The translations under genes were made by a program, and so were the position numbers. Below the pieces are notes generated by a model. That model did not search any database and had not been told where the DNA came from. It saw nothing but the letters and a program-made list of their open reading frames with translations. Below are positions 34,589-35,461 of a stretch of DNA of 58,774 bases, piece after piece. The stretch is taken from positions 6,671-65,444 of the forward strand of contig CAZAFD010000001.1 of assembly GCA_964484785.1 (NCBI GenBank), written 5' to 3'. Source of the DNA: an uncultured Rhizobiaceae bacterium. Lineage in GTDB: Bacteria; Pseudomonadota; Alphaproteobacteria; Rickettsiales; UBA1997. Position 1 is the stretch's first letter, and every line of letters starts with the position of its first letter.

Positions 34589-35428
34589 CTAAAAATCAAA
34601 TATAACTGCTCTTAAATATGCACCAACATCTGTAACCTTGGCGCCAGATTGTTTACTATTTTCGAAGTCGCCACATGACGATCCATAAAGAGATCCATTT
34701 ATTTTTCCACGGCAAGCACAATAAAACATATACTTATTTACTTTTTCAGGGTTATATTGTGTACTTGGTTGTGTGGTGTCCTCCTTATAAAAACTTCTTA
34801 GTTTTTTTACTAACTTATCGCAAAATTGCGGAGATAAAAAACCATCGGTGTTGGTACCTTTGCCTTCCGCTGTATATGCATAATTTAAAAATGTTTTTGC
34901 TTTTTTATTGGTATCATAACCATAATTCCAAGTTGTTGGTTGAGCACAGCTATTGTTATTCCATAACAAAAACCCAGCACCATTTATACCTTTTATTTTA
35001 GATTTTAAACTTGACCAACCACTTAAAATATATTTTGATTTATCCAGATATCCCATATCTACCAAGTCTATGAATAACTGCCCATTGCACATAAAGTCAG
35101 GTGGCCAAGCTGGATTAACAGCGAAAAAAGAACGACCAGCCAAATAATACTGATGTAAAGCATTCTTATATTCTTCAAATTCATTTCTAATAATTATAAA
35201 TTTGGCTTCATCTATAAGTGCTCTTCCTCCTATTACTGCACTAATAAGAAGACCTATTATGATAAGAACTATAGATAACTCAACTAAAGAAAAGGCTGAT
35301 TTAAATTGATTAAGATAACATGAATACAAAGAATAAAATGAGAGATGTTTATTATTATTACTTAAATTTCTTGTCTCTCTCTCTCTCTCTCTTATTAGAT
35401 TATTTAAATTATTATGATGTTGGAGCAT
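34589..35428 (-). CDS. type IV pilin / T2SS pseudopilin-like protein, paralog 1
   Basis: It has a class III signal, KSA|FSLVELSIVLIIIGLLISAV (Phe+1, Glu+5, hydrophobic helix), then ALIDEAK...YKNALHQYYL like the pilin alpha1-C region, and a C-terminal Cys pair (CACRGKINGSLYGSSC). The ATG start gives a 45-aa leader. An in-frame TTG at 35329-35327 would give a 12-aa leader (MYSCYLNQFKSA). Confidence 0.8.
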   Translation of the reverse strand: MLQHHNNLNNLIRERERETRNLSNNNKHLSFYSLYSCYLNQFKSAFSLVELSIVLIIIGLLISAVIGGRALIDEAKFIIIRNEFEEYKNALHQYYLAGRSFFAVNPAWPPDFMCNGQLFIDLVDMGYLDKSKYILSGWSSLKSKIKGINGAGFLLWNNNSCAQPTTWNYGYDTNKKAKTFLNYAYTAEGKGTNTDGFLSPQFCDKLVKKLRSFYKEDTTQPSTQYNPEKVNKYMFYCACRGKINGSLYGSSCGDFENSKQSGAKVTDVGAYLRAVIFDF

Positions 35429-35461
35429 ATTTGTTTATATTGTATAAGTTGTTTGTTTTGA
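35231..35461. repeat. 231-bp block 100 percent identical to 58213-58443 (pilin 5' module)
   Basis: In a base-by-base comparison by eye I found no mismatch. The block covers codons 1-66 of both pilin-like genes plus 33 bp upstream. Weaker similarity continues ~70 bp further upstream. Confidence 0.9.
35374..35392. repeat. dinucleotide microsatellite (TC)9.5, = (AG)n on the coding strand
   Basis: tctctctctctctctctct lies between the annotated ATG and the prepilin cleavage motif and encodes RERERE in the long-leader reading. Confidence 0.95.

Follow-up and report, generated by a model that had tools for sequence, protein, structure and literature searches.

The DNA examined here is a 58,774-nt (58.8-kb) stretch of contig CAZAFD010000001.1 from an uncultured bacterium of the order Rickettsiales (assembly GCA_964484785.1), hereafter called the window. 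It carries two pilin-like genes, termed A and B, whose 5' ends are the subject of this report (Table 1). An exact comparison across the window revealed that the two genes share a block of 231 nt, identical base for base and in the same orientation, at an offset of 22,982 nt. The match is maximal, as one further base at either end already mismatches. In both copies it begins 33 nt before the ATG and takes in codons 1-66, up to the residues ...IIGLLISAVI. An exact match of this length within 58.8 kb cannot be ascribed to chance. Around the block, a repeat finder returned ungapped similarity over 299 nt (92% identity), and blastn returned a wider gapped region (88%), whose two copies could act as homology arms flanking a conversion tract.

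These features had largely been anticipated in an earlier note on the same DNA, which described the identical block and its make-up, a TTGACA box upstream of both copies, protein bodies that had diverged save for a few islands, and the presence of metG and kdsA between the copies. All of this was borne out: 231 of 231 nt match, the coordinates of the open reading frames (ORFs) agree with the proposed content of the block, and both boxes were found. The location of these elements on the minus strand had gone unmentioned.

Table 1. Coordinates of the two pilin-like genes and associated features in the window.
Feature	Position	Strand	Details
Pilin-like gene A	34589..35428	-	279 aa; database protein P0001
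Pilin-like gene B	57649..58410	-	253 aa; database protein P0003
5' module, copy A	35231..35461	-	33-nt leader, ATG, (AG)9A, 45-codon prepilin leader, first 21 mature codons
5' module, copy B	58213..58443	-	exact, maximal identity to copy A
Wider homologous region, copy A	35161..35526	-	88% to 58144-58510 (gapped blastn)
Wider homologous region, copy B	58144..58510	-	88% to 35161-35526 (gapped blastn)
(AG)9A tract in A	35374..35392	-	coding nt 37-55, encodes RERERE(T); TRF period 2, 9.5 copies, 100%
(AG)9A tract in B	58356..58374	-	length and frame as in A
Predicted prepilin cleavage site, A	35291..35296	-	Ala45/Phe46 (KSA/FSLVELS); TIGR02532/PF07963 motif position
Predicted prepilin cleavage site, B	58273..58278	-	Ala45/Phe46; TIGR02532/PF07963 motif position
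TTGACA box upstream of A	35488..35493	-	60-65 nt before ATG, outside identical block; possible -35
TTGACA box upstream of B	58471..58476	-	TATAAC after 15-nt spacer
Hairpin, 20-bp stem	34532..34576		directly 3' of A stop codon, between convergent glyQS and pilin A; probably a bidirectional terminator

The proteins encoded by A and B are 49% identical overall and about 34% identical beyond mature residue 35, with the islands named in the earlier note present. The same note had called the genes pilin-like, and indeed both exceed the cut-off of TIGR02532 (prepilin cleavage/methylation; 16.3 bits), with scores of 19.3 for A and 19.5 for B. The cleavage region reads KSA/FSLVELSIVLIIIGLL, with a glutamate at mature position +5. 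In the predicted mature N-terminus, F1-S-L-V-E5-LSIVLIIIGLLISAVI, this glutamate precedes a run of about 20 hydrophobic residues. Residues F46, S47, L48 and E50 are invariant across an alignment of 38 sequences of relatives. AlphaFold2 (AF2) modeled mature A as a helix (residues 3-51) plus a beta-sheet head (pLDDT 82.7) and B as a helix (residues 48-96) followed by strands (pLDDT 78.3). In these models the helix is some 49 residues long and the head has five to six strands. When PDB sequences were searched with a profile, pilin N-termini appeared among the hits, but only as weak matches mixed with spurious ones. By the TIGR02532 scores and the mature N-terminus, A and B are type IV pilin-like proteins with a predicted class III signal peptide.

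The way in which the identity ends is informative. Between A and B there are no differences over the 33 untranslated nt and codons 1-66. Immediately downstream the picture changes: codons 67-75 include six that keep their amino acid, and five of these six differ synonymously, i.e., synonymous sites are already saturated, and by codon 90 nucleotide identity is down to about 50%. For comparison we used 79 loci from related Rickettsiales metagenome-assembled genomes (MAGs; 439 kb, 29% GC), where paralogue pairs differ at 12-24% even in the first 75 mature nt. Purifying selection therefore cannot explain the identity over 231 nt. This pattern indicates a recent gene-conversion tract, through which the 5' module was copied between loci, rather than selective constraint. 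The essential genes located between the two direct repeats bear on the type of exchange that the genome could survive. They include metG (35994-37679) and kdsA (41749-42645), accompanied by xerD, pgsA, recO, addA, mreB and miaA; a crossover would delete them and be lethal, so only conversion should be tolerated.

The two genes belong to a family of at least nine paralogues in the same genome (database proteins P0001-P0009), spread over five NCBI contigs. None of the nine is truncated; each is in frame and has both an ATG and a leader. Their leaders span 33-48 aa and are rich in indels, and residues 44-66 are invariant. Leader identity is 100% between A and B, 83% between A/B and P0004, and 98% between P0007 and P0008, yet the bodies of the latter two are only 27% identical. 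The body of A is closest to that of P0002 (45%), with leaders 41% identical, and the body of B is closest to that of P0006 (54%), with leaders also 54% identical. Such conflicting relationships imply that the 5' module has moved between loci; judged from these identities, the history of the leaders differs from that of the bodies across the family.

One could alternatively imagine a recent whole-gene duplication, in which fast diversifying selection changed the body and purifying selection held the 5' part. The pilin N-terminal helix is strongly constrained, as the invariant residues 44-66 attest. A duplication would nevertheless leave unexplained the identity of 33 untranslated nt and of all synonymous sites in 66 codons, with saturation right after, as well as the fact that the bodies of A and B are nearer to P0002 and P0006, respectively, than to each other. 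The leaders of the other paralogues, furthermore, vary freely (41-83% identity). We regard this explanation as extremely improbable.

An artefact of assembly or polishing would be another way to create the identity, or the linkage of module and body, at a repeat. The sequence stems from a draft contig 65,444 nt long, an exact repeat of 231 nt is longer than common k-mer sizes, and multi-mapped polishing reads can homogenise near-identical repeats. However, each copy is flanked by unique sequence, on one and the same contig, and the two hence do not represent a collapsed repeat; the boundaries of the identity match a biologically coherent module. Moreover, independent MAGs from other studies also show shared 5' blocks followed by bodies that cannot be aligned, and alternative leader-body linkages are each found in several independent assemblies. 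An artefact thus seems very improbable to us.

The earlier note had interpreted the arrangement as pilE/pilS-type variation. On that model, a single expression locus would receive C-terminal segments from silent donors through RecA-dependent conversion, and the 5' block would merely mark a cassette border. Consistent with this are the multi-copy type IV pilin family, the sharp boundaries of the identity, the presence of recombination genes (recO and addA, in the window), and the use of cassette conversion by Rickettsiales, as in msp2/p44 (PMC4534519). Non-reciprocal recombination between copies is likewise a trait in common with pilE/pilS. However, pilS copies are silent donors of variable 3' segments, without a promoter, a ribosome-binding site or the 5' coding region (PMC4534519). 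Here, instead, both copies and all nine paralogues are complete, with ATG and leader, A and B each have an upstream region of their own, and it is the 5' end that was converted. In tblastn searches with all nine paralogues, the window contained no 5'-truncated or silent cassettes, only the two full-length copies. No 3' nucleotide homology exists between A and B, so that conversion of the body would have no 3' anchor, and no G-quadruplex (G4) motif occurs anywhere in the window. We accordingly consider a pilE/pilS-type system quite improbable. Homology is confined to the 5' end; the exchanged unit is the 5' module and not the variable body. Of the earlier proposal, therefore, gene conversion stands, for the 5' module, together with the arguments that sharp identity boundaries are typical of recombination and that only conversion is tolerated at this locus; the exchange of variable C-terminal domains and the likeness to pilE/pilS are not supported.

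Within the shared block there is an element that the earlier note had overlooked, namely a perfect dinucleotide tract, (AG)9A, starting 36 nt past the ATG. It is the only dinucleotide run of more than five units in the 58.8 kb, whereas shuffles of the window gave an expectation of about 0.01. In both genes, gain or loss of one unit would lead to a stop after about 22 codons, and a change of three units would keep the frame. At the tract position, P0005 encodes a longer stretch, RERERERE, and P0009, P0004, P0006, P0007 and P0008 encode progressively decayed versions. On this basis (AG)9A is a putative slipped-strand switch, in which slippage would abolish translation of the pilin; for this genome, we infer switching from the sequence. 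Most likely, the shared 231-bp front end represents an on/off switch that recombination has spread within a large family of variable surface-fibre proteins.

The related MAGs provided a broader view of such tracts. Of the 26 runs of G or C of at least 9 nt in the 79 loci, 24 precede the mature Phe codon of a pilin-like gene by no more than 200 nt. These tracts (G10-11, C9-10), located on the coding strand, are always preceded by a short peptide that starts at an ATG, e.g., ATG-KKFSKI-G11. Among 25 tract-bearing genes, 5 are in frame (ON) and 17 are OFF, albeit restorable by a change of 1 nt in either direction; the remaining 3 could not be restored by the tract alone. Variation in tract length was directly visible at a DUF374-pilin-lon locus of a related species, recovered from four independent metagenomes, where the sequences are 98% identical and the sole indel lies in the G tract. 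The lengths there were G11, G11, T+G12 (in frame, with one extra Gly) and T+G10 (+1 nt, OFF). In the T+G10 allele, the gene caller had restarted at a GTG inside the tract. Many family proteins in the database start with 'MGGG...', a signature of OFF alleles mis-started by gene callers. The type of repeat varies by species, being (GA)n in the present genome and poly-G or poly-C in sister species.

The related MAGs also bear on the exchange of leaders. In a sister species, clusters that are at least 90% identical and share one body bear at least five different leaders in different samples. Two long contigs, L163 and L164, are 95.6% identical over a stretch of 3.2 kb that begins some 55 nt before the Phe codon; further upstream they are unrelated, neighbouring genes included. 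The alternative leader-body arrangements each occur in more than one assembly. Within the related MAGs, many paralogue pairs carry exact 5' blocks of 60-235 nt and have unalignable bodies; the pair in the window is an extreme case of this family-wide pattern. In environmental relatives, which are marine or freshwater, the leader is 3-15 residues long and contains no tracts or simple-sequence repeats, which implies that the long, repeat-bearing leader was derived in the host-associated clade.

It might be objected that the conversion is real and the switch is not. The (GA)n tract could be mere low-complexity sequence, whether coding or untranslated, it could be too stable to slip, or translation could begin downstream, e.g., at an in-frame TTG at codon 34, 12 codons before Phe46. 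In keeping with this, both copies and all nine paralogues are in frame, most relatives have short leaders, and several of the paralogues have decayed tracts. On the other hand, the frame has remained open through indel-rich leaders of 33-48 codons in nine paralogues, in AT-rich and hence stop-prone DNA, and a perfect dinucleotide run of 19 nt is not expected by chance. In sister genomes, moreover, tracts occupy this position in both ON and OFF states, their length polymorphism was observed directly, and a canonical start codon is absent between the tract and the mature region. We therefore deem the absence of a switch unlikely, although it is the alternative that we take most seriously.

The observations as a whole are best explained, in our opinion, by a paralogous pilin family with convertible, slippage-prone 5' switch modules, an explanation that we hold to be probable, if well short of certain. 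According to this model, each gene would consist of three parts: (i) a switch-leader module, made up of the ATG, about 12 codons, the frameshift-prone repeat and the rest of a class III signal peptide of 33-48 aa ending in ...KSA/F; (ii) an invariant hydrophobic N-terminal helix for assembly; and (iii) a highly divergent globular head. Slipped-strand mispairing would toggle each locus ON or OFF independently, in the manner of opa genes, and a shared pilus machinery would polymerise whichever heads are ON. The choice of head may serve adhesion, or help the cell to evade immunity or phage. Finally, the conserved 5' modules would recombine with one another, which would spread the switch, renew decayed ones and re-pair leaders with heads. 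More tentatively, and with less than even confidence, we propose that genomes in a clade of host-associated gut Rickettsiales each carry a set of type IV pilin genes, numbering from about 10 to more than 20, in which a slippery repeat within an unusually long prepilin leader gates every gene and a switch-leader-helix cassette is mobile between loci. This would amount to combinatorial, opa-like phase variation of pilus subunits.

Several points weigh against such a model. Genes A and B are both ON, with tracts of equal length, and if translation began at the TTG of codon 34, past the tract, the leader would have a normal length of 12 aa and the switch would be circumvented. The length of the leader, 45 aa if the ATG at 35428 is the start, is itself atypical when compared with the short, positively charged leaders of about 5-30 aa, as is the Ala at position -1 (Ala or Gly family-wide), where Gly is expected in prepilins. 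Assignment to the pilins is not uniformly supported either: A and B score 17.8 and 18.0 bits with Pfam PF07963, under the cut-off of 21.2, and neither AF2 model had a match at E <= 0.001 when searched against the PDB with Foldseek. In the window there is no pilus machinery or prepilin peptidase. The promoter is uncertain, given that the counts of a consensus promoter scan were at or below shuffle expectation in this AT-rich DNA. The nine paralogues of this genome are database singletons, and the seven other than A and B were compared at the protein level. As for the data from MAGs, homopolymer lengths and leader-body junctions derived from short reads can be miscalled, or chimeric, at conserved repeats, and polishing may have erased a few real differences between A and B. 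Scans of genome and metagenome contigs returned no conspecific sequence.

Among known systems, the closest parallel is offered by the opa genes of Neisseria, in which CTCTT repeats in the signal-peptide coding region cause translational phase variation at about 11 dispersed, recombining loci (PMC4534519). The family described here resembles opa in having several complete, dispersed paralogues, a frameshift-prone repeat just past the ATG in the leader, conserved 5' ends, variable exposed parts and recombination between loci. It differs in that opa genes encode beta-barrel outer-membrane proteins, as opposed to pilin-like subunits with a class III signal peptide, and in that the repeat is a dinucleotide here and a G/C homopolymer in the sister genomes; switching is also deduced from sequence in our case. 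The occurrence of (GA)n and, in sister genomes, of poly-G at the same position of the leader points to opa-like loci that may be switched independently, rather than to one expression site with silent donors.

In the hop/bab/sab genes of Helicobacter pylori, CT dinucleotide repeats are found in the 5' coding region, and conversion takes place between loci with identical 5' ends; these paralogues share their 3' ends as well. Common to that system and to ours are a dinucleotide (CT/GA) repeat in the signal-peptide region, near-identical 5' segments of paralogues and a conversion that places a switchable 5' end on another body. The protein class and the organism are different, and A and B share the 5' end only. 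Contingency genes with poly-G/C tracts are known in Campylobacter, Haemophilus and Neisseria, one example being pilC, whose tract gates the accessory protein PilC and not the pilin subunit. The pilin-leader tracts of the sister MAGs (G10-11, C9-10), which occur in ON and OFF frames and vary in length from sample to sample, are akin to these, unlike the (GA)n tract of the window. As to Anaplasma msp2/p44, this system combines one expression site with truncated 'functional pseudogenes' that have conserved 5' and 3' ends (PMC4534519). It shares with the present family the order Rickettsiales, the organization as a multigene family of surface proteins and recombination via conserved flanks, but it has no simple-sequence-repeat switch and its products are not pilins.

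Type IV pili have been reported only for basal and extracellular Rickettsiales, with a proposed role in host attachment (PMC10847448). Our literature search turned up no account of the present family, of pilin multigene families or phase variation in those lineages, or of such a system for type IV pilins or Rickettsiales. Members of this order have been studied mainly as obligate intracellular bacteria, and their known antigenic variation consists in cassette conversion of outer-membrane proteins. If the model is correct, an exposed fibre would be under strong, fluctuating selection, exerted perhaps by host immunity, host-cell receptors or phage. The model would also argue for an extracellular or epicellular life stage in uncultured, gut-associated lineages. 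Pilus subunits with a class III signal peptide would join the proteins that are gated by repeats in the leader region, and the 5' module would be a natural example of a portable switch cassette. A practical implication concerns annotation, in that gene callers mis-start many genes of the family at the tract ('MGGG...') and the family is consequently mis-annotated in a systematic manner. Overall, the analogy with pilE/pilS should give way to a model of opa-like contingency loci plus recombination.

Placement of the genome agrees with Rickettsiales. The window encodes VirB10, VirB11 and VirD4, the latter two above the cut-offs of Rickettsia-type equivalogs, and the close relatives of the pilin genes all occur in MAGs labelled as uncultured Rickettsiales. 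The genes virB10, virB11 and virD4 lie at 20097-24512, preceded by dnaX (18811-20058) and, upstream of the latter, by two large ORFs that match no family (14549-16810, 753 aa, and 17284-18720, 478 aa). Vir clusters of Rickettsiales usually have virB8 and virB9 upstream; we recognised neither gene there. The 23S rRNA gene (29851-32610) and the 5S rRNA gene (32715-32828) have no adjacent 16S gene, their upstream neighbour being pepA (28051-29478). Such a split arrangement of rRNA genes is typical of Rickettsiales.

In related MAGs, a PilB-like ATPase is encoded directly upstream of a pilin-like gene, and PilT was detected above its family cut-off. At one locus (L022:809-2602), the PilB-like ATPase has an MshE-type cyclic-di-GMP-binding N-terminal domain (NF053729, 47 bits, cut-off 38), and tolQ and tolR follow the pilin gene.

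Other features of the related MAGs concern the arrangement of leaders and tracts. In one of them (BRZ_MD__bin29), there are two arrays of three tandem pilin-like genes. In the first (L057), each gene has its own ATG and a G10 or G11 tract, the states being OFF, ON and OFF. In the second (L016), two of the genes have tracts (ON and OFF). Either array thus has one tract-bearing gene in frame. Some paralogues in the Nepal and E06 MAGs (L020, L056 and L070) have poly-Asn leaders, with runs of 10-20 Asn. Since these repeats are codon-sized, a change in length would alter the leader length and not the frame, an instability unlike that of G/C or GA tracts. In the gut-metagenome contig L164, a Cas9-like gene (positions 1-2096; HNH_4 + RuvC_III, 1181 aa) is located directly upstream of the pilin-like gene. 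In L163, the same pilin body is preceded instead by a CgtA-like glycosyltransferase gene and a helix-turn-helix (HTH) gene.

The convergent order of glyQS and a pilin-like gene (32972-35428 in the window) is kept in three other Rickettsiales MAG species (L045, L012 and L050). Glycyl-tRNA synthetase (GlyRS) is 67-69% identical between the window and these loci, and the pilin bodies there have no detectable similarity. A test of whether bodies follow locus orthology at the glyQS-adjacent position thus had no body similarity between species to work with. The spacer between convergent glyQS and pilin A is 246 nt long and houses a 39-nt tandem repeat (34370-34442; 1.9 copies, 83% matches), about 90 nt upstream of the hairpin with the 20-bp stem.

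Upstream of the pilin-like genes, the TTGACA box of A has no good -10 element at canonical spacing. Shine-Dalgarno motifs precede only 7 of the 38 ORFs and are therefore so rare that their absence before the pilin ATG says nothing. A tRNA gene (58720-58774), truncated by the end of the window, is divergent from gene B and lies about 310 nt upstream of it; its anticodon region, read by eye, is GAA (Phe).

Elsewhere in the window, a tightly packed, partly overlapping run of four ORFs (243, 250, 211 and 507 aa; 3779-7399, minus strand) resembles an operon and has no NCBIfam or Pfam matches. No family match was found for a 698-aa ORF at 38487-40583 either. At positions 21-397 a unit of about 98 nt is present three times in direct orientation (60-72% identity, 27-nt sub-period), probably as part of a repetitive coding region severed by the edge of the window. 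Lastly, genes for an ADP-forming acetate-CoA ligase (7473-9551) and for pyruvate kinase (9752-11155) suggest a fermentative, glycolytic metabolism, which is unusual for classical Rickettsiales.

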